Shown here piece after piece: positions 1 through 14,072 of a stretch of DNA of 14,072 bases. The notes below the pieces were generated by a model. It searched no databases and had not been told where the DNA came from. It saw nothing but the letters and a program-made list of their open reading frames with translations. The DNA comes from a virus (Duplodnaviria > Heunggongvirae > Uroviricota > Caudoviricetes): IMG/VR virus record IMGVR_UViG_2645727905_000010, positions 1 through 14,072 of that record; one strand, written 5' to 3'. Numbering within the stretch: the first letter of the stretch is position 1; each line of letters starts with the position of its first letter. Made by a program: the position numbers and the translations under genes.

Positions 1-30
1 ACACCCACTCTATTTAAATACCGTCTTTTT

Positions 31-80
31 GTCACTGTGTGTCACTGGTTGTCACTCTCCGTCACGGTATGTCACCACAA
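31..80. repeat. Five direct copies of GTCAC at exactly 10-bp spacing (starts 31, 41, 51, 61, 71), immediately 3-prime of the last minus-strand ORF
   Basis: Seen directly: tGTCACtgtg tGTCACtggt tGTCACtctc cGTCACggta tGTCACcaca. Helical phasing would put all copies on one DNA face. Confidence 0.8.
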
Positions 81-81
81 G

Positions 82-375
82 TTAACGTCGTAACCGCTCC
101 GGCTTCTTCCAGTGGTAAGTAATTTTTTCTTTCTCCTGGTACATCTCCACGCGGCGACGATATGACAACAACTCCAGAACTCTGGTGCGTATATTGCGTA
201 TATCCACGCCGTTAAGCTCGATACCGTCACGGCGCATCACCTCAGCCACCACACGCGCGTAATTTTCGGCTATCACGCTGTCCGGCTGCGTGGCCTCCTG
301 TTTGCCTGCTTCCTGGCTGATTCCGGTAACGCGACGGATTATTTTTAGTAGTTCGGTTTCGCTCATTCTCGTCAT
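82..375 (-). CDS. Hypothetical 97-aa protein, translationally coupled to the large terminase (ATGA overlap at 372-375)
   Basis: ORF with ATG at 375 overlapping the terL stop at 372-374. Basic C-terminus. No family recognised by eye. Confidence 0.55.
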   Translation of the reverse strand: MTRMSETELLKIIRRVTGISQEAGKQEATQPDSVIAENYARVVAEVMRRDGIELNGVDIRNIRTRVLELLSYRRRVEMYQEKEKITYHWKKPERLRR

Positions 376-2033: not shown

Positions 2034-2373
2034 GCTCGTCCTCTTCCTCTGTTTCCGGTGGATTTCTGCGGCGACTTACCGGGTCAAAACCCAGCAAAGA
2101 AGCCATTTTGATCATTATTCTTTCAGCGTCAGCCTTTGCGCTCAGGGCGGGGTTTCTGCTCTCGCTGCCCTGACTGTTAACAATGCTGAACCCGCGCGTG
2201 GCAAGGTCTTCGACGGCTTTGCGGTATATGGAGTAGTTAACGCAATACAGCTCCAGATTGCTCCAGTCGGCGGGGGTAAGGTCTTCCCGTCCGGAAAGCT
2301 GGCGCGATTTTTCCTTCCACTGCCTGACCGCGATTTCATCCAGGTAAGCGGGGGCTTTTGGTGGTCTTGCCAT
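2017..2373 (-). CDS. terS: Terminase small subunit (P27-like), about 118 aa
   Basis: Translation from MARPPKAPAYLDEIAVRQW resembles P27-family small terminases in size and sequence style. ATG at 2371-2373. The longer ORF to 2514 adds 47 residues with no recognisable similarity, so the start is uncertain. Confidence 0.72.
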   Translation of the reverse strand: MARPPKAPAYLDEIAVRQWKEKSRQLSGREDLTPADWSNLELYCVNYSIYRKAVEDLATRGFSIVNSQGSESRNPALSAKADAERIMIKMASLLGFDPVSRRRNPPETEEEDELDRLA

Positions 2374-2661
2374 GTTCTTTTTTCGCCCAATTATTTTCAA
2401 AAAAATTCCCGTGCACAAAAATTTGAGGAGGCGGTCGGTGTCCGGCAGGGACGGTTTCGTCCTGAAAACCACCCCCACCCCCTCTGACGGCCTCACCAGC
2501 GATTGCGAAAACATTCCATGACCTCGCGGTCACGGTCGGTTAATCGCTTCGCTGTGGTGCGTTCTGTGCGCCCTGTCCTGTTGGCTTTGTGCCCTGTCTC
2601 CTGTGTCTTCCATAAGTCACGCTGCCTTATCAGTCCACGTATCAGCCTGGTTTGCTCCTGT
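2374..2661. other. Candidate cos / packaging-initiation region between the HNH endonuclease and terS
   Basis: 288-bp gap with no convincing ORF. In HK97-like cos phages, as I recall, cos lies between the HNH gene and terS. Contains an imperfect inverted repeat (cagggacg gttt cgtcctg), GC-rich tracts and direct repeats gtgcgccctgtcctg / gtgccctgtctcctg. Confidence 0.3.
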
Positions 2662-3102
2662 TCAGTCATCATCGCCATACATCCAGTCGTTACGGTGTGC
2701 TGCCCGTTCTTCCTGCTCGCGATACATGCCCGCCTTACGGTTCGCTTTCGTGGCTGGATCTTCCCGTGTCGTCTTACGGTTGTGGCACGTCTGGCACAAT
2801 GCCTGGTGGTTCCACTCAGGCCAGAAGAGAACATCACCGCCGCCATTGATGGGGATGATGTGATCCACCACAAGAGCTGGCGTATAAATCCCCTTAGCCA
2901 GACAACGCACGCATAACGGGTTTTTGCTCAGGTACAGGGCGCGGTATTTGTCCCACTGTCGGGAATACCCGCGCGCGCGGCGGTGTCCCCGTCTGGCATC
3001 CTCTGCACGCCATACAGCCCGTCTGTGCTCTTCACACTTGCCGGACTTCACGCGCTTATTACAGCCCGGCTCAGTGCATCGCCTTAATGGTTGCCACGGC
3101 AT
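2662..3102 (-). CDS. HNH endonuclease (packaging-associated)
   Basis: 146-aa translation with N-terminal Cys pairs (CTEPGC, C..C) and the HNH motif region DHIIPINGGGD ... NHQALCQTCHNRKT. ATG at 3100-3102 overlaps the stop of the upstream connector gene by 1 nt. Confidence 0.9.
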   Translation of the reverse strand: MPWQPLRRCTEPGCNKRVKSGKCEEHRRAVWRAEDARRGHRRARGYSRQWDKYRALYLSKNPLCVRCLAKGIYTPALVVDHIIPINGGGDVLFWPEWNHQALCQTCHNRKTTREDPATKANRKAGMYREQEERAAHRNDWMYGDDD

Positions 3103-3404
3103 CAGTACACCCCCACATCACGATAAACCGACCAGAGCGCAGAAATAGCCATAGGCAGTTCAGACTGCTCCACTGGTGAAACTGCTTCCCTGTTCTCGTA
3201 CAGGAAAGCGATGTACATCAGGCAACCAACACGCATTGCCGGGGTAAATTCCAGCCCGTCTTCAAAACGTTTCCCGATATGCTTCTGGCAGGCTTCCAGC
3301 GCCGCATCGGTATACATTTTCAGAAGTTCGCCTTCACCGGATAAATCATCATCAAGTCGAAGATGTGCCCTGACTTCATCAGGTGTAATTCTGGCTTCAC
3401 TCAT
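3102..3404 (-). CDS. Head-tail connector / adaptor protein (gp6-like)
   Basis: Translation from MSEARITPDEVRAHLRLDDD...EACQKHIGKRFE matches the characteristic N-terminus of gp6-like head-tail connector proteins. ATG at 3404 with GGGAG upstream. Overlaps the portal 3-prime end by 8 nt. Confidence 0.7.
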   Translation of the reverse strand: MSEARITPDEVRAHLRLDDDLSGEGELLKMYTDAALEACQKHIGKRFEDGLEFTPAMRVGCLMYIAFLYENREAVSPVEQSELPMAISALWSVYRDVGVY

Positions 3405-4611
3405 CTTTTCTCCCTTTAATTTCCACAGTCTGTTTCCATGCCTGGCTGAACTCATCACCACCTTCACGCGGCGGCATACCCTCGCGTTCGCGAGCTTCGT
3501 TCTGATTCATGATCCCGCTCTTAATCCCTTTCTCATACGTGGCATAACGTTCGGTGGGTGTGGCGCGCAGTAAATCGGCTGAATCAAACTCAACCAGATA
3601 ACGGGTACCAGGTACGGGAGAAGTCACCAGCAAAGCGGCCTTGATTTGCTGTTCGAAGTTCGCCAGCCACGGGCGCATTGTCATGGTCAGAAATGCGCGG
3701 CTCGCCTCACTGAAATTGCTGTAGGTGCTGTTGCTGTATTCCTGAAGAAAAATCGGCGACACGTTGAACATCCTGGCGATGTCTTCAATGGAGAAGCGAC
3801 GGGAGGCCAGCCATTCCGCATCCTGGTTACTCATCCCCAGCTGCCTGTAATCCATGCCCCCTTCAAGGATTGGCGTTTTTCCGGCATTTTTCGCCCCCTT
3901 GTAGCGTTCCAGTGCGTCTAATGCCTGTTTACCTTTCACGCCGTCCAGCCATTCACCTGACGTGATAATCCCTGCCGCCATCATGCCATCTTTCATAATG
4001 CTGGCTCCGTGACGCTGTTGAGCAAGGCCAAGCCCCAGCGCCTCACGGCAAATCGTGACGGGGGAACGCCCCAGAAAGCCATTATCCGAGGCATAGCGGA
4101 GATGCAGAACTTCTTCCTGTAAATACGTGCGCACCGTTCCTGTACAGGGTTCGGTGATGGTATAGCGGTATTTGTGTGTGCCTGTGCGTTCCGGTACAAC
4201 ACACCCCGGCGCATAAGGATGAAGTGATTTTGGCTGCCCGTCCCGCCCCCACTCAATAACCGCATAGGCGTTACCGTTCAGCAGGCAGTGACGCATCATT
4301 GTGCGTTTAAACTGGTAAGGTGTCAGGCACGAATTAGGCTGCTCATTCAGCAGAATATCTACCGGGTGACTGTCCAGCCATTCCCGCGCCTCTCTGCCCT
4401 TGTCATTACGTACCAGATACAGGTAACACGGCATCGTGGCCACCGCCTCAGCGATGACAGAAACCGCGTTCATCACAGCAGGCAATGATTCAGCCGTCCC
4501 GGCAGAAACATATTCTCCGGATCCGGTATTTGGTACACCAGACAACGCCAGAAAATCATCAATGGACAGGTTACGCAGATCGCTTTTTTTACGACTAAAA
4601 GGCCACCACAT
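3397..4611 (-). CDS. Portal protein (HK97 family)
   Basis: About 400-aa translation with portal-like features and an acidic C-terminus. Start chosen at ATG 4611 (MWWPF...), directly after the protease stop. The ORF could extend to 4701. Confidence 0.88.
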   Translation of the reverse strand: MWWPFSRKKSDLRNLSIDDFLALSGVPNTGSGEYVSAGTAESLPAVMNAVSVIAEAVATMPCYLYLVRNDKGREAREWLDSHPVDILLNEQPNSCLTPYQFKRTMMRHCLLNGNAYAVIEWGRDGQPKSLHPYAPGCVVPERTGTHKYRYTITEPCTGTVRTYLQEEVLHLRYASDNGFLGRSPVTICREALGLGLAQQRHGASIMKDGMMAAGIITSGEWLDGVKGKQALDALERYKGAKNAGKTPILEGGMDYRQLGMSNQDAEWLASRRFSIEDIARMFNVSPIFLQEYSNSTYSNFSEASRAFLTMTMRPWLANFEQQIKAALLVTSPVPGTRYLVEFDSADLLRATPTERYATYEKGIKSGIMNQNEAREREGMPPREGGDEFSQAWKQTVEIKGRKDE

Positions 4612-4612
4612 A

Positions 4613-5173
4613 TCACAACCCCGCCAGTTCAGCCCAGCGATGACGATTATTTCCTGCCGGGCGTAATTCAGGGTACTGTGCAAACAACGAACGGTGGGCA
4701 ATCTCCACGCCGGATTCGGGATAAGCAGGCATCGATGTTATCGTGATTTCACGGAGTTCTGCGGCGGTTACAGTACGCAGATACGGTTTTTGCGCGATAT
4801 TCCACTCCTCGCATAATGCGCGAAAGCCAAAGCTCATTCCTGTAATATCGCCACGTTCCACCAGCGTAAGCACATCTTTTCCAAGCTGGGTATTTGGCGG
4901 TGTCAGTTCAAAACGTAGCCCGGTGTTATCCTCAGTCAGTACCAGTGAGCCGGATTTGGTACGCCCCAGCAGTCGGGTATAGTCATGCTCATACAGACAG
5001 CGCACATCATTACCCGTCGCCAGATAGTCAGCAAAAGCCCCCGGCGTGAACTGTTCGCGAAACTCGTCCCAGATAATTTCTGAAAGGCTGTTCCAGCGAA
5101 CGGCATAACCCACCAGTTTTTTATCGCTGGCGGTCAGTTCAGATGTACGGATTTCAAAATCGGTGTTTTTCAT
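4613..5173 (-). CDS. Prohead maturation protease (HK97 family)
   Basis: Translation from MKNTDFEIR contains the HK97-protease-like core (LYEHD...LGR...L.LTED..GLRFE...G.DVLTLVERGDITGMSFGF). ATG at 5173 with GGAG upstream. Confidence 0.88.
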   Translation of the reverse strand: MKNTDFEIRTSELTASDKKLVGYAVRWNSLSEIIWDEFREQFTPGAFADYLATGNDVRCLYEHDYTRLLGRTKSGSLVLTEDNTGLRFELTPPNTQLGKDVLTLVERGDITGMSFGFRALCEEWNIAQKPYLRTVTAAELREITITSMPAYPESGVEIAHRSLFAQYPELRPAGNNRHRWAELAGL

Positions 5174-5191
5174 CGGTGTACTCCATAAAGC

Positions 5192-5214
5192 TGAAAAAGG
5201 AGGCCGAAGCCCCC
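5192..5214 (-). terminator. Putative intrinsic terminator/attenuator between capsid and protease genes (minus strand)
   Basis: Minus-strand RNA would read GGGGGC-UUCG-GCCUCC (6-bp stem including one G-U pair, UUCG tetraloop) followed by UUUUUCAGCUUUAU. Sits 8 nt downstream of the capsid stop. Confidence 0.5.
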
Positions 5215-5222
5215 TTTGCTCA

Positions 5223-6368
5223 TTACTTGCCAGCCTGAATTTCCAGAATCTTGATGGCGTTCGAATCCACCACACCACCGCCCAGATATTTCTGGGTATA
5301 GATGTTAATGAATCCAGGCTCGCTGAAATCCGGACGGGTACGCGTACCGGTTTTATGGTCAACGATGAAATAACCGCGCTTAAAGTCACCGACTGCAATC
5401 ACACCGTCCGGCATAAATTCCAGATATTCAACCGGAAGCCCCAGCAGAGAATCAGGATCACCAGCCTGTAAACGATCGCGCCAGATGTAATCACCAGTGG
5501 CATTTTTCAGTTTTTGTGCGGAGGCGGCTGTATTTGAGTTCATCACCCATACAGCTTTTTTGCGGTACTTATTGCGCAGCGTAAATTTCAGGTCAATCAG
5601 CATATCGGCGCTGAGACTGCCAGTCACTTTTTTCGTCTGGAGCGTACCGAAAGGACGGGTTTTGTCATTATCCGTAGTGCGCGGGAAAGTCAGGAAACCT
5701 TTGGCTTTTTTCTCGCCATCACCGGAAACCAGATCCGTTTCTTCGGTATCAACGAAAGTGTCGCCAATTTCAGAAGATAACCAGCCCATAATATCGACTT
5801 CGGAAAAATCGATAATTTCCTGAGTGGTTTTCGGGTAAGCGTAGATCGGATACAGGCGGATACTGACTTCATTCAGTTTTGGGGTTGCCGTCTGGTTACG
5901 TGCCGCACCTTCTTCGCCGTGTCCCACGACCGCGCCCCCGGCAGAAACCAGTTGCTTAAATTCATTACTGTGAATGGTTTTAACAGTACAGATTTTACGC
6001 ATCACCGACTCATCAGAAAGCTGACGCATAATTTCTCTGTTCAGTTCCGGGATAACCGTATAACCACCATCAGCCGGAACACTGCCGGACAGGTTGCGGG
6101 TTTCCCCGGTCAGAATGTAAGAGCGTAGCTCATTTTTGGTGATTTTATCTTCGACGGGAACACCAGGCTGGTTACGTTCTTCATCAGCCACAGACTCGAG
6201 GCGGGAAATTTCTGTGTCGAGGGAATCGGCTTTTGCACGCAGTTCATCAAACTGTTTGCCTTCGTCATCGTTCAGGCTGCGGTTTTCACTGTCGGCTTTT
6301 TCCAGCAGGGATCGCATCTGGTTTTTCAGGACGGTTTTTTGCTGGCGGAGTTCGATTAATTTCTTCAT
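5223..6368 (-). CDS. Major capsid protein (HK97 fold) with N-terminal scaffold-like coiled-coil domain
   Basis: 381-aa translation with charged, heptad-like N-terminal region of about 100 aa and a C-terminal region typical of HK97-family capsid proteins. ATG at 6368. Confidence 0.9.
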   Translation of the reverse strand: MKKLIELRQQKTVLKNQMRSLLEKADSENRSLNDDEGKQFDELRAKADSLDTEISRLESVADEERNQPGVPVEDKITKNELRSYILTGETRNLSGSVPADGGYTVIPELNREIMRQLSDESVMRKICTVKTIHSNEFKQLVSAGGAVVGHGEEGAARNQTATPKLNEVSIRLYPIYAYPKTTQEIIDFSEVDIMGWLSSEIGDTFVDTEETDLVSGDGEKKAKGFLTFPRTTDNDKTRPFGTLQTKKVTGSLSADMLIDLKFTLRNKYRKKAVWVMNSNTAASAQKLKNATGDYIWRDRLQAGDPDSLLGLPVEYLEFMPDGVIAVGDFKRGYFIVDHKTGTRTRPDFSEPGFINIYTQKYLGGGVVDSNAIKILEIQAGK

Positions 6369-6438
6369 GAAGGTTTTCTCGCATTGGTTAAGATTCAGGA
6401 CGTGAAACCAACACGGGGGGAGCGCCGCCCGACACTCT

Positions 6439-6513
6439 CGGCATCTCGCAGATCAACCCGGCATCGCGCAGGGGGTCAGGCGGCATTGTGGCGGCTCACG
6501 TCTGAGTGCCACA
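6439..6513. promoter_or_regulatory. Candidate regulatory sites upstream of the capsid operon: direct repeats CGGCATC(N)CGCAG at 6439 and 6459, partial third at 6481, plus dyad TGTGGC-N15-GCCACA (6487-6513)
   Basis: Seen directly in sequence. Located 70-145 bp upstream of the capsid ATG (6368) on the transcribed side. Confidence 0.3.
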
Positions 6514-6562
6514 CGCCAACATATACATAAAAATCAGTATGTAAACATCAACCAGAATCACC

Positions 6563-6590
6563 GAACAACCTGGAACAACCACGAACAAAT
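6563..6590. repeat. Three 10-bp-phased copies of GAACAAC(C) (starts 6563, 6573, 6583); reverse complement GTTGTTC matches the repeat unit of the int-alpA array
   Basis: ccGAACAACC tgGAACAACC acGAACAAat read directly. Lies between the replication-operon terminator and the capsid gene. Confidence 0.6.
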
Positions 6591-6611
6591 AATTTACAAA
6601 ACCTGAAAAAA

Positions 6612-6632
6612 GGCCCGGAAAAAATCCGGGCC
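6612..6632 (-). terminator. Strong intrinsic terminator ending the replication/ssb/FinO operon (bidirectional hairpin)
   Basis: GGCCCGG-aaaaaat-CCGGGCC perfect 7-bp stem flanked by A-run on plus (T-run for minus-strand RNA) and T-rich tract on the other side. Follows the stop of ORF 6642..6890 within 10 nt. Confidence 0.75.
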
Positions 6633-6641
6633 TTTATCGCT

Positions 6642-6890
6642 TTATTGTTTCACTGGCTCCCGCATTCTGCGTCTTATTTTCCACAAATATTCGATCATCG
6701 CTTCCACCTGCTCACGGTTGGTTGCGAAAATTTCCCCGGTCAGTGAGCTACGCAGAAAATCATGATGATCCACAAAAAATAACGCATCGGAAGAAAGCAA
6801 CCGACGATATTTTTTTGCTGTCGTGGTTTCCAGATCATCAAAACCATGAAGCTTTTTATGTTGCTGAACTTCTTCAAATGTCACTGGCAT
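6642..6890 (-). CDS. Hypothetical 82-aa protein
   Basis: ORF with ATG at 6890 overlapping the FinO-like gene stop by 10 nt (operon context). No family recognised. Confidence 0.5.
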   Translation of the reverse strand: MPVTFEEVQQHKKLHGFDDLETTTAKKYRRLLSSDALFFVDHHDFLRSSLTGEIFATNREQVEAMIEYLWKIRRRMREPVKQ

Positions 6891-7411
6891 GTATCCCCCT
6901 TTGCTGCCCGGCGCTGGCGCTTGTGCTTCTCATTCAGCACCATCAGCCGTGTTTCTGCCTCCTGCTGTTCCTGTGGTGTCACTTCCCCACATGGCTGGCC
7001 TTTCAGATCGTAACGTGCGCCACCAGCTATCAGGGCGCGGTAATAGCGCGGAGACTGCGCATAGGATGCCAGCGTCGCACGTAATACCCCCGGCCCGAAT
7101 GCCAGCCCCCTGACGGCGATATCCTGCATCAGGTCGTCGAATATCCCCACCTTAAGCGGCTTCGGTGCTTTATGGCTGAATAAGTCAGGCCACATCTCAG
7201 TGAGGCGGTTAACGCGTCGGCGGTTTTTGCGCTGCCTTTTGGTCATATGCTGCCACGGTGTCGCCCCTGTGGGCTTCTGCTGTGCGTTCTGATTGCCGGG
7301 TATCACTTTATGCGCCGATGTGGTTTTATCCTGCTCTTGCGCCGCCTGCGTCGTTTTCTGCGGCGTGCCGTAAATGCCTTTCGGCTTCCGGTTAATGGTC
7401 AGCGTTGTCAT
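6881..7411 (-). CDS. ProQ/FinO-domain RNA-binding protein
   Basis: Core region WPDLFSHKAPKPLKVGIFDDLMQDIAVRGLAFGPGVLRATLASYAQSPRYYRALIAGGARYDLKGQPCGEVTPQEQQEAE resembles the ProQ/FinO fold signature (CF..PLKIGI.DL...S...LR.AL..Y..S.RY......G..R.DL.G...G.V). Basic Lys/Arg tail. Confidence 0.8.
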   Translation of the reverse strand: MTTLTINRKPKGIYGTPQKTTQAAQEQDKTTSAHKVIPGNQNAQQKPTGATPWQHMTKRQRKNRRRVNRLTEMWPDLFSHKAPKPLKVGIFDDLMQDIAVRGLAFGPGVLRATLASYAQSPRYYRALIAGGARYDLKGQPCGEVTPQEQQEAETRLMVLNEKHKRQRRAAKGDTCQ

Positions 7412-7447
7412 GCCTTCCCCTGTAATTACTCTGTTCGCTGTTGTGAA

Positions 7448-7873
7448 TTAAAACGGTATGTTATCCCCGTACGGGTCATCGTGCTGGCTTGTCTGTTGTT
7501 TTGCCCTGTTCAGTGCGTCAGTGGCCTGGCCCTGTTGACCTTTTTTGCCGCCCGGTCGCGCCGTTCGCGCACTGATTACGCTGTCTGCAATAACCTGCCA
7601 GCCCTGCCGCGTTTCCCCGTTCTGGCCTGTCCACTGGCTCACCTGCATGTTACCCGCCACGCTCACCAGTTCGCCTTTGTGGTGTTTTGCCAGTGCGTCG
7701 GCCTGTCTGCCAAACGCCAGGACAGATAACCACATCGTCGCCGTTCCGTCATCTGCCTGGCTGCACGGCAGGGGAACCGCCATACTCGCCATCGCCATTT
7801 GTGTCCCTTTGCTGGTGGTCTTTAACTGCGGGTCAGCCACCAGCCGCCCGTAAGCCGCTATCTGTGCTGTCAT
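7448..7873 (-). CDS. ssb: Single-stranded DNA-binding protein
   Basis: 141-aa translation with OB-fold-like core aligning by eye to E. coli SSB (IAAYGRLVADPQL / WLSVLAFGRQADALAKH / QGWQVIADSV), Gly/Gln-rich linker and C-terminal acidic tip ...DDPYGDNIPF (SSB tip motif D-I-P-F). Confidence 0.85.
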   Translation of the reverse strand: MTAQIAAYGRLVADPQLKTTSKGTQMAMASMAVPLPCSQADDGTATMWLSVLAFGRQADALAKHHKGELVSVAGNMQVSQWTGQNGETRQGWQVIADSVISARTARPGGKKGQQGQATDALNRAKQQTSQHDDPYGDNIPF

Positions 7874-7936
7874 GCTGTCTGTTCTCCGGTTTTAACGTTG
7901 ATTGTTACGCTTGTTTACACCCTTACGGTGAAATTC

Positions 7937-8060
7937 TGCGGGTTATAATCGCACTTTTGCGGGTTATAACTGCCGTTTTGCGGGTTACGTGCGGGTTATT
8001 GATTTCCTTTTTATTCATACAGTTAATGCACTTACACACAGGATAACCCGCATAACCCGC
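7937..8060. repeat. Putative origin of replication: four direct iterons TGCGGGTTA(T/C) at 7937, 7958, 7979, 7990, an AT-rich spacer, then two inverted copies ATAACCCGC at 8043 and 8052
   Basis: Seen directly. Located immediately 3-prime of the replication gene (stop at 8084), the usual ori position in PICI/P4-type elements. Confidence 0.75.
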
Positions 8061-8083
8061 AACTTTTTACATCACACAGGGGG

Positions 8084-10204
8084 TTAATCTTCTGCCTCAG
8101 GCTGGAACATCAGCACGTAAAAAACATGCTGCTTCCCCCCAATTTTGCTGAGCGCCTTTTTCTTGTAACGGCGGTCGTTCCCCTTTTCCAGCATCCCCGC
8201 CGCATCAAGCGCTCTTGCAAAATGCGACGGGTTAAATCCCTGTGCGATCTCACCTTCAAACACATGCGGGAACGTGTAAAAACGGAACTCGTCATCTTCG
8301 TTTCTGATACTCCCCTTTCTGTATCCGGCAAGCTCTTTAATCGGTAAATCACGCTCGTCGGTGTTGGGCCACGGAAGGTATCTGCTGAATCCGAACGACG
8401 CTAAAAAAGCCTCTGCCTGTTCAACCATCTGTTTAAACTCCCTGTTACCCGTGCCGAATTCCTTCACCCAGGCATAAAAATTATGCTGTATGGCATCGCG
8501 GCATTCCTGCTCATCCCAGCCAGTAACATGACCGGAAAGCACAAGCGCGGCCTCCAGTATGGCAAAACGCTCACCCACGCGGTGGACCTGCTCGCCGTAG
8601 CTCTCCGGTATCAGGTTGCGCCACCGTTCACGGCATGCCCTTACCGTGTCCTTTGCTTCCTGCTGGTGGTTTGCCAGCCATTTAACCCATTCACGACCCG
8701 CCGCCCCGTGATTTTCTGTCCAGGCATCCTTTAACGCGTCTGCGTGTGCCTTTCCGGTGCTGTATTCGTGAAATTGTGTGGCTTTTTCCATTGGCACGTT
8801 AAGCAGGCGGACAAGCTGCCCCGCCTTGACTTTTATCCCTTCCGTTTTGAGGAATGTTTCAACGTCCATTTCTCCGGTACTGATTGCCACCGTGCGCCAG
8901 TGTTTGATCTCCCTGTTGCCGCCGTCCTTTGCCCCCTGTAATTTCCCGGAACCGTTAAACAGCGTATAGGCTGACGTGGACACCTCCCGCGCGTTTCCGG
9001 CCTGACCTATTTCATCCAGGGGTAACAGCCCGTCATTATGTGCTTCGGCCTCGTTGGCGATACCTAACGCCGTGCCGTACCAGGTCAGCCGTTGTGCGTC
9101 CGGCTCTCCCCATAAACTGGATGCGATGTTCTGTGTGGTGGTTTTCCCTGCCGATGACTGTTCGAAAAGATGTACCCCGAAGCCGTCAGCCCCCACCAGC
9201 CCGATTAATGGTGCGGATAACGATACCGCCACACCCAGCATCATGGACGGATTACCACCAGCCAGCCGCGCCACGGTATCGCGCCAACCCTCCGCCGTTC
9301 CTGCCACGGAATAGCCATTAACAGCAGCCGTTTTTCCGGTAAACAGGACTGGCTTTTCGCAATCACCAATGACCGAACCGTCCGGCATGATGTACGCGCC
9401 AAAATGCCAGCCCGTTGTTGTGCTTAACTGCCATTCCTCATGGCTTCCGCTTAACTGCATCCAGTCAGCCAGGATAGCCCTGTATTTGCCGTTAGTTGTT
9501 ACGTTCAGTCCGTGGTCTTTCAGCAGCCGCCAGCCGTCACGGTCGCCAATGCCACCGCACGGAACCGCCATTGTTATGACTTCATGGTTTGCTAATTTTT
9601 TCCAGCGCATCACGCGGTAATGCTCTTTACCGATTGTCCCCGTTCCCAGTAGTTCAAGCGGGGAACATAACCACGTCTCAGGCCGGATAATTTCGCCTGA
9701 CTGCTTATCCACTTTGGGCGTTACCCAGAAAACACCATCGGCGCGGCTTTCAACGCGTGGCTTTAATTCATCATCACCCTGGCTTTCTGTGATTTTTTTC
9801 TTTAAGGGCAACACCAGACTTTCCCCGCGCTCGTATTCGTCTTTCAGCCGGGCAAGCTGTGGTGTCCAGTCCTCCAGTAAATCGCCGTTCTCGTCACAAA
9901 AACAGGCTTCTTTAACACCAGCCACTGCCAGCAGGGTTTCAATCTGTAGCGCCAGTTTGTCATCCAGTTTTCCGGCACGTCTGACGATGGCGCGTGACCG
10001 ACCCTCATCCACAATACGCAGGTTTTCCAGATTACCCAGGTCACGCCGTCCGAGATAAACAGGTGGTATTTTGTCGCCGCGCTTTCTGGCTTCTCCGCCC
10101 TGCATGTAATGCTCTGCGTGGCTGTATGCGTCATCCCCCGCAAAAATCACTGCATCCTCGCCTTTATCTTTCGGTAACAGTTTTACGTTCGGTGCCAGTT
10201 TCAT
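8084..10204 (-). CDS. Replication initiator: primase/helicase-like protein with P-loop NTPase domain
   Basis: 706-aa ORF. Central P-loop-like motif FEQSSAGKTTTQ and size/architecture typical of satellite and genomic-island primase-helicase (pri-rep) proteins. ATG at 10204 overlaps the upstream gene stop (ATGA). Confidence 0.8.
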   Translation of the reverse strand: MKLAPNVKLLPKDKGEDAVIFAGDDAYSHAEHYMQGGEARKRGDKIPPVYLGRRDLGNLENLRIVDEGRSRAIVRRAGKLDDKLALQIETLLAVAGVKEACFCDENGDLLEDWTPQLARLKDEYERGESLVLPLKKKITESQGDDELKPRVESRADGVFWVTPKVDKQSGEIIRPETWLCSPLELLGTGTIGKEHYRVMRWKKLANHEVITMAVPCGGIGDRDGWRLLKDHGLNVTTNGKYRAILADWMQLSGSHEEWQLSTTTGWHFGAYIMPDGSVIGDCEKPVLFTGKTAAVNGYSVAGTAEGWRDTVARLAGGNPSMMLGVAVSLSAPLIGLVGADGFGVHLFEQSSAGKTTTQNIASSLWGEPDAQRLTWYGTALGIANEAEAHNDGLLPLDEIGQAGNAREVSTSAYTLFNGSGKLQGAKDGGNREIKHWRTVAISTGEMDVETFLKTEGIKVKAGQLVRLLNVPMEKATQFHEYSTGKAHADALKDAWTENHGAAGREWVKWLANHQQEAKDTVRACRERWRNLIPESYGEQVHRVGERFAILEAALVLSGHVTGWDEQECRDAIQHNFYAWVKEFGTGNREFKQMVEQAEAFLASFGFSRYLPWPNTDERDLPIKELAGYRKGSIRNEDDEFRFYTFPHVFEGEIAQGFNPSHFARALDAAGMLEKGNDRRYKKKALSKIGGKQHVFYVLMFQPEAED

Positions 10205-10515
10205 TTTGCCTTTCCCCGTTCACGAATAATTTCACGTACTGCCTTAATGCGTTCCATTCCTGTAACGCGCATGATTCTGTCAATGTCGCTTAAGTTCGCT
10301 GGTGGTGCTTTGCTTACCAGGGTGAACTCCCTTTCAAAGCGCATATGCGACGACACGCAGGGATGCGCATAACCTTCGCGGATATAGGTCACGCGAAAAT
10401 CATCGACGGTTTTAATCGTTATCGTGCTGCCGTATTTATCCCGGAAAATATCGCCGGGGCGGATTTCAGGCCGAGCGGGGCCGCTGGCAGTAAAGCCAGA
10501 ATTTTTCTTTTTCAT
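10201..10515 (-). CDS. Hypothetical 104-aa protein
   Basis: ORF with ATG at 10515 and GGAG upstream. Stop overlaps the replication gene start, consistent with translational coupling. No family recognised. Confidence 0.55.
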   Translation of the reverse strand: MKKKNSGFTASGPARPEIRPGDIFRDKYGSTITIKTVDDFRVTYIREGYAHPCVSSHMRFEREFTLVSKAPPANLSDIDRIMRVTGMERIKAVREIIRERGKAK

Positions 10516-10520
10516 GTTTT

Positions 10521-10739
10521 TTACTCCAGAGGCAGCTTTTTAGCGGCGAGCTCAATATCAGATGTCAGAGAAACCTGTGTATTTGCCAGGTCTAACAACA
10601 AAGAAATAAGAATTTCTTCTCTGCTATCGGATTTATCGGTGCTAAGGCTGTTCATCCACATATTGACGACTTCCCTGATTTTTTTCGCAGAGTGCAGGGC
10701 TTCAAATGCCAGGTCTTCAATATCATGTTTATTTCGCAT
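10521..10739 (-). CDS. Hypothetical 72-aa protein, predicted helical
   Basis: Start chosen at ATG 10739 (MRNKHDIEDL...) with G-rich SD-like tract upstream. The longer form to 10805 would overlap the upstream gene by 77 nt. Confidence 0.45.
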   Translation of the reverse strand: MRNKHDIEDLAFEALHSAKKIREVVNMWMNSLSTDKSDSREEILISLLLDLANTQVSLTSDIELAAKKLPLE

Positions 10740-10941
10740 AATCGCCCCCGCGTAGCTGGTCTGCACTAACACCCGATTTAGTGAGCATTTCAGAAAATCC
10801 CGCAAGAGTGCTGATAAATTCGTTTTCCATTAAACGGCACTGACATTTAACCCGGCCTTTTTCCAGATACACCAGTACGCGCCCCGTATAATCTGACGGC
10901 ACATTCAGCACTACAGGTAAGTGCGATTCATGATTATGCAT
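10729..10941 (-). CDS. Hypothetical 70-aa protein, paralog of the adjacent upstream gene
   Basis: Shares pattern TG..LV....KGRV.C...L with ORF 10934..11143. ATG at 10941 overlaps that ORF's stop by 8 nt. Confidence 0.55.
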   Translation of the reverse strand: MHNHESHLPVVLNVPSDYTGRVLVYLEKGRVKCQCRLMENEFISTLAGFSEMLTKSGVSADQLRGGDYAK

Positions 10942-11143
10942 GTCTCACCCCCTGAATATTCGCATTAATCATTCCGGCACGTTCTGCGAGTTCCTGTAAT
11001 GATTCCCTTGTTGCGACAATGGCTTCATCTGGCAGGTGGTAATTACACACCACGCGACCTTTATCCACATTGACCAGTAGCTGCCCGGTAAATTTCTCAC
11101 GAAACTGAACGCGGTTAAGGTCGGTAAGTGACAGGTTAATCAT
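10934..11143 (-). CDS. Hypothetical 69-aa protein, paralog of 10729..10941
   Basis: ATG at 11143 preceded by AGGGGGA. Conserved block FTGQLLVNVDKGRVVCNYHL aligns to YTGRVLVYLEKGRVKCQCRL of the neighbour. Confidence 0.55.
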   Translation of the reverse strand: MINLSLTDLNRVQFREKFTGQLLVNVDKGRVVCNYHLPDEAIVATRESLQELAERAGMINANIQGVRHA

Positions 11144-11339
11144 GGTGTTCCCCCTGGCGAATACGGGCAGCGAATACCATCACGCAGCCATCAGGAGATT
11201 GCTGACGCGCTTCCTGTTCGCTGGTGGCCTCAATGGTAATCACGCGCGGTTGTGCCGTGCTCAGGGCGATAAAACGCCAGATGTATTTATTCAGGTTGTA
11301 CGAGTCCCGCCCTTGCGGGTGTCTGGTATAATTTCTCAT
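11136..11339 (-). CDS. Hypothetical 67-aa protein, first gene of the leftward operon
   Basis: ATG at 11339 with GAGG 5 nt upstream. This is the plausible 3-prime part of a 370-aa track ORF whose remainder has non-protein-like composition and crosses the plus-strand genes. Confidence 0.45.
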   Translation of the reverse strand: MRNYTRHPQGRDSYNLNKYIWRFIALSTAQPRVITIEATSEQEARQQSPDGCVMVFAARIRQGEHHD

Positions 11340-11415
11340 AGCTGCCTCGATACGCTTTCTATCGTTGGTGGTTAGACGCCCTGCATGTGTGCCACCACTG
11401 CGGGGCGTTGTTGTT

Positions 11416-11511
11416 TGGTGCATCGCACCATTCGGTTTTAACCTATCAATAAGTGAATCGCACTTCAAGCCTTTCTCTGAAATTTTTTTTGTGTATACTG
11501 AATCGCACCAA
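11416..11511. promoter_or_regulatory. Divergent promoter/operator region: perfect palindrome TGGTGC-ATC-GCACCA (11416-11430) plus two further ATCGCAC-containing sites (11456-11467, 11500-11512), the last abutting a TATACT -10-like element (11494-11499)
   Basis: Seen directly. Lies between the divergently oriented 67-aa gene (start 11339) and the RHH gene (start 11530). Confidence 0.5.
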
Positions 11512-11529
11512 CTTAGAGAGGATTCAGTA

Positions 11530-11709
11530 ATGGCAACAGGTTCAACAAATAATAAGTCGCAACAGTTAAATGCCAGATTCCCGCATGATGTTGTTGCAGA
11601 CTTAGAAAAAAATTTAGATGAAGGTGAAAGCAAGGCGCAATTTATAGTTACTGCCGTTAAAGGTGAGATCAAACGCCGCCAGCGCCGCAAGGCCAAAGAG
11701 CAGGAGTAA
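11530..11709 (+). CDS. Ribbon-helix-helix (Arc/CopG-like) DNA-binding protein, 59 aa
   Basis: ATG at 11530 with AGAGGA 7 nt upstream. Translation has RHH-like layout: short N-terminal strand (LNARFPHDVV) followed by two helices (ADLEKNL...; ESKAQFIVTAVKGEIKRRQ) and a basic tail. Confidence 0.6.
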   Translation: MATGSTNNKSQQLNARFPHDVVADLEKNLDEGESKAQFIVTAVKGEIKRRQRRKAKEQE

Positions 11710-11766
11710 CCATCACCAGCGCCGTGGTGTAAGGTATTACGGCGCATTGCTATGCAGGACAACACA

Positions 11767-11940
11767 ATGACCGATAAAGAATTGACCAAAACATTATCAC
11801 CGACACGGAAAAGACGGCGCAGAAAGATAGAGCATGAATCAGAAAGATTCGCGCCATGTGCTTTTGCCCTTGAGCAATTCCTTAAAGAGTACAGGGAAAA
11901 GCGCTCATTGCAGGTATGGCAACGAACTGAACCAGACTGA
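11767..11940 (+). CDS. Hypothetical 57-aa protein with Arg/Lys-rich N-terminal segment
   Basis: ATG at 11767 with AGGA 7 nt upstream; ORF track alternative ATG at 11752 lacks an SD. Followed by an intrinsic terminator. Confidence 0.4.
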   Translation: MTDKELTKTLSPTRKRRRRKIEHESERFAPCAFALEQFLKEYREKRSLQVWQRTEPD

Positions 11941-12005
11941 TTGCATTGCCCACCAGCCGCAAATGTGGCATTGTTGGTGATGCTTTTGTTTTCCCTTGTT
12001 CCCAC

Positions 12006-12042
12006 TGGCGACCCTTTTGCGGTCGCCTTTGTTTTGCTTGTT
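12006..12042 (+). terminator. Intrinsic terminator for the plus-strand two-gene cassette
   Basis: tGGCGACC-cttttgc-GGTCGCCa stem-loop (7-8 bp stem) followed by TTTGTTTTGCTTGTT. Confidence 0.7.
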
Positions 12043-12300
12043 ATCCGGCAATAGTGGCGCTTCACCACACGGTTGATATAATTCCCCTGCACTGATCCAT
12101 TTTTTTCGCAGCAGGTTAATTGTTCAGAAAGACGGTTCCTTATCGGGGCCGCTTTTTTTATGCCTGAAAATACCCGATAACATGGCTTTTTAGTTTCACC
12201 AGGACGAACGAAGCCCCGCCCCTGTTCGGGCGTATATCCAGTATTCATGGTTAGATCTCTGTGTTAGTGGATGGGTGGCGGCGGTGCGCCGCCAGCCTGA

Positions 12301-12504
12301 TTAGTGAACTGCCTCGCGGCTGTCCTTCCATGCCAGAACTTCGGATAAAGACCAGCCAACGGAACGACCGCCGAGTTTACGCCGTGATGGGAATTGTCCA
12401 GTCTTCTCCAGGCGATACCGACATGAGCGGCTCAGGCCTGTAAGTTGCTGACATTCTTTTTCACGTATAAAGCGATCAGCGCTTAACACTATTGCCTCCG
12501 TCAT
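12301..12504 (-). CDS. alpA: AlpA-family transcriptional regulator (phage/island excision-activation regulator)
   Basis: 67-aa translation ...REKECQQLTGLSRSCRYRLEKTGQFPSRRKLGGRSVGWSLSEVLAWK matches the AlpA pattern (...TGLSRSTIYRL...G.FP....LG.RSVGW...E...W). Confidence 0.85.
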   Translation of the reverse strand: MTEAIVLSADRFIREKECQQLTGLSRSCRYRLEKTGQFPSRRKLGGRSVGWSLSEVLAWKDSREAVH

Positions 12505-12695
12505 TTCTCAAAGAGTCATTTGGTGTCTTATTGTGTCGTATTGTTCCCGCTAGAGTGATGAATGGCAAATATTGGTGACGGTCGTTTTACAGATATGGGG
12601 TAATTAGAATAAAAATACTTTTAATTCATTGTGATGTAGTAGCGTAAAATTTTGCTTTTACGCCTTTTTTACATATTTTTAAGAGTGATTCGCCA

Positions 12696-12711
12696 GTGTA
12701 TAAAAAAACAG
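12696..12711. promoter_or_regulatory. LexA-box-like element GTGTATAAAAAAACAG (one mismatch to CTGT-N8-ACAG) in the int-alpA intergenic region
   Basis: Seen directly. Differs at 2 positions from the E. coli umuDC-type box CTGTATATAAAAACAG as I recall it. The mismatch is in the normally conserved CTG. Confidence 0.3.
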
Positions 12712-12770
12712 TATACATATAAAAATCAAATGGTTATGAATGAGTTTGATTTTTAATCCGCTTGTCCCAT

Positions 12771-12820
12771 TTTGTTCCTTGTTGTTCGTCGTTGTGTCTC
12801 GTTGTTCCACGTTGTGTCCG
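12771..12820. repeat. Five 10-bp-phased repeats (T/C)GTTGT(T/G)(T/C)C between the integrase stop and alpA
   Basis: tttgttcctt gttgttcgtc gttgtgtctc gttgttccac gttgtgtccg read directly at starts 12771, 12781, 12791, 12801, 12811. Confidence 0.75.
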
Positions 12821-12842
12821 TTCTGAAAAATCACGAAAAAAA

Positions 12843-14072
12843 TTATATTTCTCTGGCTATTGGCAGTGTGGTTACGTTTTCGTGAGTACCCGCCAGTATC
12901 TCTAACCGCTCTGTCCACATGTCCAGCGCATTACGTTTCGCATCGAGATAACGGGAGTGGTTATAGACTCGCTGCATCCCTGGCATCTGGTGAGCGGTGA
13001 GTTGTTCGACAATATGCGGATCCACGCCTAAATCGTTCAGCATCGTGGTAAACGTGCGCCGTATATCGTGTAGTGACCAGTGCGGATGGTTTAATTTTTT
13101 GTGCGTGAATCTGCCGTATTGCGACACGCTGGCTTCCTGTTTCAGTTCCCCGAGTAATAGTCCTGTGTGTCGGTTCTGCTCCACCAGCCGTGTGACGAAC
13201 GGTAAAATGCTTTCCGGTATTGGCCTGAATATGGCGACCTTCGTTTTGCTGTGCTCCTTCGGTACTGTCCAGAGCATTTCCTTAAAATCCCACTCCCTGA
13301 TCTCCGACAGCCTCAGTTCTCCGGTTCGGCAACCAAACACAATCAGGAGGCGGATTAGTGCGCTGTAGTAGGGCGGGAATATTTTTTTATCCAGCGCCTG
13401 TAATAATTCGCCCAGTTCTTTGTTACTAAGCACGCGTTCGCTTATGCCTGGTTTTTTACCAACGTCCACCACGTTGAGATCATCCAGAGCGTTACTGACG
13501 ACATAGCGGCGTTTACGACAGAATTTAAGCGCCTGTTTGCACGCCTGCATCATGTGACCAGACGTTACGGGGGATTTTTTGCGTATCCGGTCAAAACAGG
13601 CCAGCCAGTGACGTAATTCGCATTTATCCAGTGGCATGTTACCGATGTGCTGTATGACGTGATTATTCAGGCGACTTTTCAGGCATACATAATCGACACG
13701 GTTTTCCTTTACGTGCGTTTCCAGCCAGTAACTGATCGCATCGCCAACCGTTACGGGTTTTAACGCTTCCTGCACAGTGTAGTTCAGTTCATGACGTGGG
13801 TTTTTCCCTTCTGCCAGCCATGCACGACACTTTGCGGCTTTTTCCCTGGCTGCTTTAAGGCTCAGATCGGGATAGTTTCCCAGCTTCAGGCGTTCCGGTG
13901 TGGTATCCCTTCCCGTTCCAGCCCTGTAGGTGAAGTACCAGGTCAATTTACCTGATGTTAAATATTTCACGCTCAGATTACCGCCATCGCTATAGAACGT
14001 ATTTTTCTCCGCTGGCTTACCATAAAGTTTTCTTAACAATGTATCGCTCAGTTTGTTAAGCGCTCTGCTCAC
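12843..14072 (-). CDS. int: Tyrosine integrase (P4/CP4-57-like), truncated by the window edge at its 5-prime end
   Basis: C-terminal catalytic region with HDIRRTF (H-x-x-R), LTAHQ and RVYNHSRY (Tyr nucleophile). N-terminal region ...YSDGGNLSVKYL...GKLTWYFTYR... typical of P4-family integrases. The ORF is open to the window end and the first translated codon is GTG, so the true start lies beyond 14072. Confidence 0.93.
   Translation of the reverse strand: MSRALNKLSDTLLRKLYGKPAEKNTFYSDGGNLSVKYLTSGKLTWYFTYRAGTGRDTTPERLKLGNYPDLSLKAAREKAAKCRAWLAEGKNPRHELNYTVQEALKPVTVGDAISYWLETHVKENRVDYVCLKSRLNNHVIQHIGNMPLDKCELRHWLACFDRIRKKSPVTSGHMMQACKQALKFCRKRRYVVSNALDDLNVVDVGKKPGISERVLSNKELGELLQALDKKIFPPYYSALIRLLIVFGCRTGELRLSEIREWDFKEMLWTVPKEHSKTKVAIFRPIPESILPFVTRLVEQNRHTGLLLGELKQEASVSQYGRFTHKKLNHPHWSLHDIRRTFTTMLNDLGVDPHIVEQLTAHQMPGMQRVYNHSRYLDAKRNALDMWTERLEILAGTHENVTTLPIAREI

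Follow-up and report, generated by a model that had tools for sequence, protein, structure and literature searches.

A predicted ribbon-helix-helix repressor and its co-varying operators form a candidate immunity switch, embedded antisense in an eta-like open frame, in a capsid-forming phage-inducible chromosomal island

Here, we propose that the small protein YlcI is an Arc-like ribbon-helix-helix (RHH) repressor and that the short region in which its gene begins (11370-11633) is the immunity cassette of a phage satellite. The DNA in question is a stretch of 14,072 nucleotides (nt) of a tailed-phage-like virus record (IMG/VR IMGVR_UViG_2645727905_000010, positions 1 to 14,072), referred to here as the window, in whose numbering all coordinates are given; by its gene content it is a satellite of the capsid-forming phage-inducible chromosomal island (cf-PICI) type. 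The proposal is based on the enrichment and fixed geometry of three operator-like sites, on their co-variation with the predicted DNA-binding strand of YlcI, on the exchange of the whole cassette between islands, on a co-varying structured RNA, and on an open frame homologous to the eta/kil region of satellite P4. The balance of this evidence, all of it drawn from sequence comparison, leans modestly towards the full model set out below.

Thirty-five loci, spread over about 12 enterobacterial genera, show the same architecture with its elements at fixed positions. When one genome per species was scanned, 29 related loci emerged in ten genera (Citrobacter, Morganella, Proteus, Pectobacterium, Dickeya, Xenorhabdus, Cedecea, Serratia, Enterobacter, and Photorhabdus), and five more Escherichia coli PICI types were added through exact-protein look-up. 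In these loci ylcI is always divergent from a leftward operon that leads with an Icd-like or a DUF4222 gene, followed by the primase gene, and in most of them it is convergent with alpA and the integrase gene (int). The original prediction, made from the letters of the window, had allowed that the plus-strand genes might be a cargo module; the switch belongs instead to the core of the islands.

Three operator-like sites lie between the leftward operon and ylcI. O1 (11416-11430) is the perfect palindrome TGGTGC-ATC-GCACCA (TGGTGCATCGCACCA) and would occupy about +4 to +18 of the predicted leftward promoter, P_L; O2 (11451-11465; AAGTGAATCGCACTT) overlaps the P_L -35 element and fills the upstream spacer; and O3 (11497-11510; ACTGAATCGCACCA) overlaps the last base of the -10 element of the rightward promoter, P_R, together with the expected start site. 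The palindrome and its two related sites had been picked out in the original prediction and are present as described; O3 starts on the final T of TATACT and so does abut the rightward -10. In the 14-kb window there are four copies of the motif TG(A/C)ATCGCAC (TGMATCGCAC) where 0.09 would be expected; none of 200 shuffles gave as many, and three of the four copies lie within 90 bp upstream of ylcI, all on the plus strand. When 24 loci are aligned without gaps from the ylcI ATG, the Shine-Dalgarno (SD) sequence, the -10 element GTATA(C/A)T, O3, O2, the TCAA that is the -35 TTGA of the other strand, and O1 all hold fixed positions over the 125 nt upstream. O3 starts at -31 from the ATG in all loci and O2 at -76 in nearly all, and a site with the class-specific core is kept at the O1 position in relatives. 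The exact core is confined to the switch region in 16 of 18 loci, the window and locus L001 each having one extra copy. That of the window (10921-10930; AAGTGCGATTCA on the plus strand, 10917-10931) falls at the beginning of the second phrog_340 gene and closely follows a minus-strand CATAAT; it was considered as an extra control point and rejected, since other loci have no equivalent, and with about 0.09 expected per window it may be a chance occurrence.

The sites change together with the protein. All three are pseudo-palindromes of 13-15 bp, as looked for in RHH-type operators, and their cores co-vary with predicted-strand residues 12 and 14 of YlcI in about eight classes: the three sites of any one locus are alike, and between lineages the core shifts with the predicted beta-strand. 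The strand QQLNARF goes with the core TGAATCGCAC, QKLQARA with TGGATTCCAG (the class of L031), QMTTVRI with TGAAATACAC, QL(F/T)TVRV with TGAAACACAC, QS(V/I)TVRV with TGTCTTACAC, RQKTARV with TGACTCCCAC, and VQLASRV with TGCTAAGCAC. Summed mismatches between O3 and the two best upstream sites have a mean of 1.9 within a locus and 5.9 across classes. A profile alignment (hhalign) with Arc of phage P22 places YlcI residues Q12, N14, and R16 on Arc Q9, N11, and R13, which are the base-contacting strand residues of Arc; the variable YlcI residues are those aligned with Q9 and N11, and R16, aligned with R13, is invariant.

Recombinant islands separate ylcI from its neighbours. L036 and L032 are 94% alike in AlpA and 93% in the Icd-like protein, but only 64% alike in YlcI, and their operators differ; L031 and L033 have the same operators and YlcI proteins that are 100% alike, with Icd-like proteins at 51% and AlpA proteins at 21%. 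By this comparison the operators follow YlcI and not AlpA or the Icd-like protein, and we regard it as highly probable that YlcI recognises O1-O3. The extent of the exchanged unit is visible when the window is compared with L031, the identity being 93-100% in the Icd-like gene, 43-63% across 11370-11633, and 77-93% from 11634. This swapped cassette of about 270 bp takes in one hairpin, the three operators, both predicted promoters, and the putative DNA-binding part of ylcI, and in this it behaves like the immunity regions of lambdoid phages.

What kind of protein is YlcI? The gene (11530-11709, plus strand) starts at an ATG at 11530 after a good SD sequence, AGAGAGGA (11515-11522), and encodes 59 amino acids (aa). 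The protein is a member of the YlcI/YnfO family, matching NCBIfam NF041551 (YlcI_YnfO_N) over profile positions 1-42 of 42 with 63.3 bits against a cut-off of 30 (E 1.5e-17), and it is assigned to phrog_949, whose function is unknown. Its 134 homologues are all from Enterobacterales; a tblastn search of 50,697 phage records gave no match to it, though PHROG 949 includes relatives. That ylcI is a coding gene is certain: in 14 diverse loci the differences at codon positions 1, 2, and 3 number 1203, 1132, and 2629, and replacements in its frame are conservative (mean BLOSUM62 -0.13). Residues N7, K9, S10, R16, P18, E33, A36, and F38 are invariant in the family alignment, together with an E-I-x-R-R-Q motif. 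In an AlphaFold2 (AF2) monomer residues 1-18 are extended and helices run from 19 to 30 and from 35 to 58; because the strand of an RHH protein forms only in the dimer, an extended N-terminus followed by two helices is what an RHH protomer lacking its partner would be expected to show. The hhalign match lays YlcI 8-50 on Arc 5-40 (E 8e-4), and among 28 relatives there are weak Pfam matches to PF07704 (PSK_trans_fac; 7 of 28, best E 0.0011) and to PF18064 (CB_ParB_C; 6 of 28, best E 0.013), both of which we take to be RHH-fold families. No database match of the window protein, Pfam included, carries the RHH label that the original prediction gave it, and the label stands as a probable fold, from alignment and model, for a protein that NCBIfam places in YlcI/YnfO. 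Longer YlcI-like proteins of 98-103 aa (L024, L026-L030; P0079, P0080, P0088) have a C-terminal extension, ...NPLLSSLDALARVEEIG...QRRKAK, that is not in the window protein and may be an added oligomerisation or partner-binding domain.

The two divergent promoters are predicted. P_R has its -10 element, TATACT, at 11494-11499 on the plus strand, with no recognisable -35 and a T-rich stretch upstream; in 24 loci GTATA(C/A)T stands at a fixed distance from the ATG. P_L, the predicted internal leftward promoter (11440-11468, minus strand), has a -35 TTGAAG at 11463-11468, a 17-nt spacer, and a -10 TAGGTT at 11440-11445. In 20 of 22 loci the best minus-strand sigma-70-like match falls at this same place and has the form TTGA(A/C/G)(G/A), 17-18 nt, TAnnnT, with scores that range over the loci from 7/12 to 11/12 (for example, TTGACA-17-TAAAGT in L024). 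The original prediction had read the region as a repressor-operator switch acting on the leftward operon, and this reading is supported, indirectly but strongly, by the fixed architecture, the co-variation, the recombinants, and the presence of two of the sites on P_L. That YlcI represses P_L seems to us rather probable.

In all loci a further block is conserved between the start of the Icd-like gene and O1, and it has the properties of a structured RNA (11339-11418, plus strand) that is antisense to the leader, SD sequence, and start codon of the Icd-like/kil gene. The RNAalifold consensus of 23 loci consists of a nested stem with an anti-SD loop, a near-invariant linker GGUUAGA, a GC-rich terminator-like hairpin, and a U-rich tail; it has 24 pairs, with compensatory changes in 15, and on five measures none of 500 shuffles reaches the observed value. 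The RNA is assigned to the plus strand because 97.3% of cells are paired on that strand and 85.5% on the other, because there are 67 G.U cells against 2 A.C cells, and because the minimum free energy (MFE) is -35.4 (z -4.6) on the plus strand and -23.7 (z -2.3) on the minus strand. A covariance model finds one match per locus, two in L035, and none on either strand of P4. Rfam holds no family that matches the RNA, and it gave no relevant match, and no C4, isrK, or CI-type immunity RNA, in the whole window at the gathering score or in 11100-12350 at E<=10. A candidate extended -10 for the RNA, TGGTATAAT, is found at 11324-11332, inside coding sequence. A cis-antisense role is at this stage a lead and not a conclusion.

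The second match in L035, an E. coli PICI, belongs to a tandem module (6540-6865 of that locus) with the same RNA (79 bits), a TGTGTATATACACA palindrome, and a different RHH-like gene of 59 aa (VSTHKNERRGNPPFQFRLDPDLREKMEKA...), so that the RNA-plus-repressor module also exists with another repressor family. In the window the leader of ylcI itself can form a stem-loop (11496-11529, plus strand; MFE -10.2, z -3.4), in which the left half of O3 pairs over 9 bp with the bases immediately preceding the AUG, the SD sequence falling in the loop or the 3' arm. In other loci the 3' arm changes with the operator class, and the stem is either a hairpin limiting ylcI translation or a fourth half-site.

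The whole switch lies on the antisense strand of an eta-like open reading frame (ORF) of 370 codons (11136-12248, minus strand; stop-free over 11139-12263, 375 codons), which is antisense to the 57-aa ORF downstream of ylcI as well. The Icd-like gene is nested in frame as its last 67 codons, and the frame is open for 308 codons upstream of the Icd-like ATG. In 27 of 27 loci this frame is open through the operators and the antisense of ylcI, and the other two minus-strand frames span 2-67 codons; over the 111 nt before the ylcI ATG in 14 loci there are no stops in the eta-like frame against 59 and 44 in the others. By dinucleotide shuffles, the openness of the intergenic part has a P of 0.01-0.04 per locus and that of the part beyond ylcI a P of <=0.001 in 10 of 14 loci. 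Indels come in multiples of three, the distance from the leftward ATG to the ylcI ATG being 184, 187, 190, 193, 196, or 202 nt, and it is 1 mod 3 in 26 of the 28 loci with a correctly identified Icd-like start. The frame is closed solely by the alpA stop codon in L031 and L032, and one gene caller called such a minus-strand ORF in L035. The overlapping frames share their wobble position, and codon-position counts cannot separate them, so BLOSUM62 was used to compare them; replacements in the eta-like frame are more radical than those in the ylcI frame (mean -0.95), and thus selection seems to act mainly on its openness. Positions 11340-11530, taken as plain intergenic DNA in the original prediction, therefore lie inside a long minus-strand frame and at the same time encode a structured plus-strand RNA.

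This frame varies in content and extent among relatives. In L036 (E. coli O157:H7 strain 2571, about 3400-3780) the eta-like ORF has an in-frame insertion of 168 nt relative to the window, whose translation looks like a degenerate Bro-N domain (...NMSIISESGFYKLIKTKSAP...), and in L033 the frame begins with an AntA-like domain; both fit the 'Bro zone' described for Gram-negative PICIs. In the Pectobacterium/Dickeya loci (L005-L012) int and alpA are on the opposite side, downstream of the Icd-like gene, and the three operators and the RNA are still kept; the open minus-strand frame there covers the operators and ylcI only, at 110-115 codons, and is not joined to the Icd-like gene.

The closest precedent for this arrangement is P4. 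In the window, alpA (12301-12504, minus strand; PF05930, E 3.4e-18), a homologue of P4 vis and the putative source of leftward read-through transcription, is directly followed by the long ORF, whose C-terminal part, the Icd-like gene (11136-11339, minus strand; 67 aa; NF033153, E 9.6e-20), has its own start, is the counterpart of P4 kil, and is the first gene of the leftward replication operon. The eta-like ORF carries NF033153 (phage_ICD_like) at residues 322-365 (E 1.5e-18), and the 214-aa eta ORF of P4 (8168-8812) carries it at residues 161-208 (E 1.4e-20). Since both ORFs end in an Icd-like domain, the region is, by homology, the counterpart of the vis-eta/kil control region of P4. When P4 eta is compared by BLASTP with a relative of the window Icd-like protein, E is 7e-13; a direct BLASTP of the window protein against the old P4 'cI' coding sequence gave a spurious weak alignment and was set aside, and it took the full eta ORF together with the NCBIfam domain to make the homology clear.

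Mageeney et al. (PMC10111431) describe P4 eta as a long ORF whose translation is coupled to that of vis, the homologue of alpA; the constitutive promoter P_LE and the CI immunity RNA lie within it, and kil is nested in frame at its end. By the same account, which summarises Forti 1999, the upstream late promoter is the only one from which eta is translated, and this translation blocks termination and bypasses immunity. As in P4, the order in the window is an alpA/vis homologue, a long ORF, and a primase operon, the Icd-like/kil C-terminus is separately translatable, and the long ORF encloses an internal promoter (here the predicted P_L) and immunity determinants (here candidate ones). In P4, by that account, termination is averted when eta is translated from the upstream promoter, whereas here what is seen is a stop-free frame with in-phase indels. 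The immunity factor of P4 is a processed CI RNA from the same strand that acts by premature termination, whereas in the window it is a predicted protein repressor from the opposite strand; and the window adds a divergent repressor gene, three operators, and an opposite-strand structured RNA, all embedded antisense in the ORF, where the P4 annotation has no gene opposite eta.

How might such a switch work? In the model that we propose, YlcI would bind three sites of 13-15 bp of the form GGTG-N5-CACC. Binding to O3, on the -10 and start of P_R, would give negative autoregulation of ylcI, and binding to O2 and O1, over the -35/spacer and over the initial 20 transcribed bases of P_L, would keep P_L off in the quiescent island; unrepressed, P_L would express the Icd-like/kil gene and the primase operon. 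The two-hairpin plus-strand RNA, antisense to the P_L leader and ribosome-binding site, would probably be a second, post-transcriptional lock, and together the repressor and the antisense RNA would keep the kil-like gene and the replicon silent, both in the integrated island and after establishment. On the analogy of P4, a helper phage would activate alpA, and the alpA transcript would be translated through the switch in the eta-like frame; such translated read-through would avoid both termination and initiation at the blocked Icd-like start, so that the replication genes would be turned on despite the repressor. AlpA is known to activate PICI induction (Fillol-Salom 2018, PMC6092414), and the original prediction had found a repressor odd if induction is AlpA-driven. 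The two need not conflict, since in P4 an internal, immunity-controlled promoter is bypassed by read-through from vis/alpA.

A bolder form of this model, to which we give somewhat less than an even chance, is a three-layer immunity system packed into about 400 bp antisense within a translated eta-like gene: an Arc-like repressor whose exchangeable recognition strand and operators make up at least eight immunity classes, a new FinP-like RNA, and, once a helper phage arrives, an override of both by translation-coupled read-through from alpA. Such a FinP-like RNA, directed against the kil/Icd leader, could possibly be served by the island's own ProQ/FinO-family RNA-binding protein (6881-7411, minus strand; PF04352, E 1.2e-23). 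The gene for this possible antisense-RNA partner is found in only some related islands.

A number of results weigh against the model as a whole or against parts of it. Pfam has no match for the window's 59-aa protein, and hence no RHH model for YlcI, or for orf57, the ORF that follows ylcI; hhalign gave no alignment of YlcI with Mnt; a sequence search of the PDB with the YlcI family profile gave 0 matches at E<=10; and Foldseek of the AF2 monomer against the PDB found nothing meaningful. The positive figures are themselves modest, the Arc alignment having an hhalign probability of 24%, the AF2 monomer a confidence (pLDDT) of 67, and the matches among relatives being few and weak. A generic sigma-70 consensus scan flagged neither divergent promoter in the window, so that the assignments of P_L and P_R rest on positional conservation in relatives, and P_L of the window is weak, at 7/12. 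Linkage of adjacent features could partly explain why protein and sites co-vary, but linkage alone is insufficient because recombinants separate the neighbouring genes, and the L036/L032 and L031/L033 swaps argue against AlpA or the Icd-like protein as the binder. The bypass part of the model cannot be universal, given that in Pectobacterium and Dickeya the frame is unjoined and int and alpA are on the other side. Finally, over-expression of AlpA alone induces a related PICI, and alpA is required (PMC6092414); induction can thus be accounted for without a repressor, the loss of which may be mild in its effects.

Could YlcI serve only itself? Autoregulation is the main role of many RHH proteins, among them CopG, Arc, and antitoxins, and the module could be a self-contained accessory cassette in which YlcI autoregulates its own small operon (ylcI and, in E. 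coli, orf57), O1 and O2 being auxiliary sites for cooperative binding or looping. O3, on the -10, is the clearest site, and the window P_L, unflagged at just 7/12, would suit this explanation. We think it rather unlikely nonetheless, because in about 12 genera the module has stayed between alpA and the Icd-like/primase operon, although most of them lack the downstream ORF, and a self-regulating cassette would have no obvious reason to be retained there; in addition, O2 lies directly against the conserved TTGA(A/C/G)(G/A) -35, with TAnnnT 17-18 nt away, in 20 of 22 loci and at up to 11/12. A different use of the same sites would be as a roadblock, with bound repressor and convergent transcription from P_R acting on the RNA polymerase that comes from alpA and so setting a threshold for AlpA read-through. 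The alpA transcript does have to pass the three sites, ylcI and alpA converge, and the stop-free frame suggests that a ribosome-coupled polymerase must cross this stretch; but the conserved leftward -35/-10 around O2 would be left unexplained, and Pectobacterium and Dickeya keep three sites with no alpA upstream. As the sole explanation it is unlikely, but it can coexist with the repression of P_L that we favour. The 'Stl-like logic' of the original prediction, read as a scheme in which YlcI would be the primary block, removed by a helper-phage protein, and AlpA would be secondary, has an attraction in that a divergent small repressor beside int and a regulator resembles the stl/rpr region of Gram-positive PICIs, and the helper-encoded inducer of Gram-negative PICIs was unidentified in 2018 (PMC6092414). 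It finds no support here and we consider it quite improbable: the helper activates alpA transcription in EcCICFT073 and EcCIMP1 (for EcCIMP1 this was seen with a reporter plasmid that carried the promoter fragment by itself), EcCICFT073 is induced in the absence of phage when AlpA is over-expressed, and induction fails in alpA mutants of EcCICFT073 and EcCIEDL933 (PMC6092414). A 59-aa RHH protein also offers little surface to an anti-repressor, and P4 is the closer precedent.

Two further explanations bear on the genes themselves, and we give very little credence to either. The gene order, the small sizes, and an RHH protein with a palindromic operator on its own promoter would all suit a type II toxin-antitoxin pair, with YlcI as antitoxin and the 57-aa basic protein as toxin, as the original prediction had also suggested. 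The partner, however, is restricted to E. coli and Shigella and is variable even within E. coli, its C-terminus is frame-variable, there is no toxin or defence match in Pfam, NCBIfam, or PADLOC, and ylcI is monocistronic in most genera. At the other extreme, ylcI might be no functional element at all, the repeats being iterons or sites bound by AlpA, integrase, the Icd-like protein, or a replication initiator, and the real gene being the long minus-strand ORF, which covers the region on the other strand, is conserved in its openness, and was called in L035. It is hard to reconcile this with the mean BLOSUM62 of -0.13 in the YlcI frame against -0.95 antisense, with the conserved SD sequence and -10, with operators that follow YlcI where AlpA, Icd-like, and primase types vary independently, or with the absence of the exact core elsewhere in most loci. 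An anti-helper reading was also considered and rejected, there being no conserved partner and no defence-family match.

As a repressor-operator switch of the kind that we propose, the cassette has several partial counterparts. The immI region of P22 has two RHH repressors, Arc and Mnt, the divergent promoters P_ant and P_mnt, and the sar antisense RNA, and that of P1 has the order c4 RNA, icd, ant. As in P22, the window has a predicted small Arc-type RHH repressor, with the Q-N-R triad aligned, operators over close divergent promoters, and a candidate RNA (here on the plus strand) in the same region; as in P1, an Icd-family gene would be the first to be regulated. It differs in that the profile match to Arc is weak, in having three operators where P22 has one, and in being a satellite and not a phage; the ant gene of P22 and P1 is absent from the window, AntA- or Rha-like genes being found in some relatives. 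A further parallel is with the cis-antisense control of FinP/FinO in F-like plasmids and of SymR/SymE. The predicted two-stem-loop RNA of the window (about 80 nt if it starts near 11339) is complementary to an operon's first gene at its leader and ribosome-binding site, a ProQ/FinO-family protein is also encoded in the window, and the target is a small, likely toxic protein of the Icd/kil family; but there is no sequence relation to FinP or SymR and no Rfam match, and ProQ/FinO occurs in only some related islands. Stl proteins are larger, helix-turn-helix proteins, of a fold unrelated to YlcI, and in Gram-negative islands induction runs via AlpA. The layout is nevertheless similar to that of SaPI Stl and the Rpr of Gram-positive PICIs, where a small repressor gene beside int is divergent from the excision-replication operon and keeps the island quiescent (PMC6092414). 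The founders of the YlcI/YnfO family (DUF3950), YlcI of prophage DLP12 and YnfO of Qin in E. coli K-12, have NF041551, a similar size, and a strand-helix-helix sequence pattern in common with the window protein. The identity is only 23% over 31 residues, and K-12 ylcI is sited not between alpA and a primase operon but in a lambdoid late region, where it diverges from nohD, the small-terminase gene.

An RHH repressor-operator switch, nested genes of the P4 type, and a cis-antisense RNA are each known kinds of part; their combination, and a role in Gram-negative PICIs, are new. The searchable literature yielded no function for YlcI/YnfO and no link between a PICI and an RHH repressor, and a 2026 survey lists 'YlcI/YnfO, prophage-associated protein' only as a cf-PICI accessory gene. 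Control of Gram-negative PICIs has been described as activator-only, through AlpA, and a global repressor's existence has been called unclear (Fillol-Salom et al. 2018, PMC6092414). If true, the three-layer system would supply that repressor and would explain how AlpA induces without its removal. Gram-negative PICIs and cf-PICIs are carried by a large share of Enterobacterales and carry virulence and defence genes from strain to strain. A conserved cassette of repressor and operators whose specificity can be exchanged would give these islands immunity groups and predict their mutual exclusion or tolerance, would explain the silence of the toxic Icd/kil gene and the replicon, would link PICI control mechanistically to P4, and would assign a first testable function to the YlcI/YnfO family. 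It would also bring a new candidate for a cis-antisense RNA and, as a rarity, a regulatory gene that lies antisense within a frame that selection keeps open, and its orthogonal repressor-operator pairs could serve the engineering of PICI-based delivery vehicles.

The classification of the window as a cf-PICI is based on Pfam matches to an integrase (12843-14072, minus strand), AlpA, a DUF927 primase (8084-10204, minus strand), and the island's own capsid, portal, and large terminase; the family has been described previously (bioRxiv 10.1101/2022.09.08.507074). Further minus-strand genes, besides those for capsid, portal, large terminase, and the ProQ/FinO protein, are a DUF4222 gene, one for a single-stranded DNA-binding protein (SSB), and, after the Icd-like gene, two adjacent and overlapping phrog_340 paralogues of 69 and 70 aa (10729-11143, minus strand) whose function is unknown. 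An annotated twin element in E. coli E500002, which sits in yifB beside ilv, matches 11141-12300 of the window at 99.5% and has in addition a prohead protease, a head-tail connector, an HNH protein, and a small terminase; neither the window nor the twin has tail genes. To the left of about 11141 the twin diverges from the window. The original prediction had given ylcI and the 57-aa ORF as the only plus-strand genes; their coordinates are correct, and the same two are the sole plus-strand genes in the annotation of the twin, the rest being on the minus strand. RefSeq names them 'YlcI/YnfO family protein' and 'hypothetical protein'. An identical 59-aa protein (WP_000190566.1, RefSeq YlcI/YnfO family) is encoded in an element beside roxA in E. 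coli O157:H7, and 1654 of 5426 complete E. coli genomes match part of the 1.2-kb region.

Downstream of ylcI, orf57 (11767-11940, plus strand; phrog_21027, E 1.2e-15) encodes a basic protein of 57 aa when counted from an internal ATG. All 32 of its homologues are from E. coli or Shigella, and they conserve the core ERFAPCAFALExFLKEY, with variable termini. In other E. coli PICIs its place is taken by different ORFs of 58-78 aa, which share the (R)FALExFL motif only, and most other genera have no ORF at this position. PADLOC found no defence-system match for orf57 or YlcI, and orf57 has no NCBIfam match. On this distribution it is a lineage-specific accessory gene, outside the conserved module.

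The original prediction had credited the rightward unit with its own promoter and terminator. The terminator is there: a one-directional, Rho-independent signal (12007-12037, plus strand; hairpin 12007-12027) with a 7-bp stem, 6 of the pairs being GC, and the tail TTTGTTTTGC; the minus-strand version of the hairpin has no U-run, the next bases being AGUGGGAAC. The promoter stands as a -10 conserved in relatives and not as a scan hit. A second hairpin (12133-12151), inside the eta-like ORF, has a T-run on the plus strand and a T-rich stretch also after its minus-strand version (12133-12160), and a GC-rich inverted repeat, GGGTGGCGGCG/CGCCGCCAGCC, lies between the alpA stop and the eta-like ATG (12273-12297). 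Both are possible termination or coupling signals for the alpA transcript.

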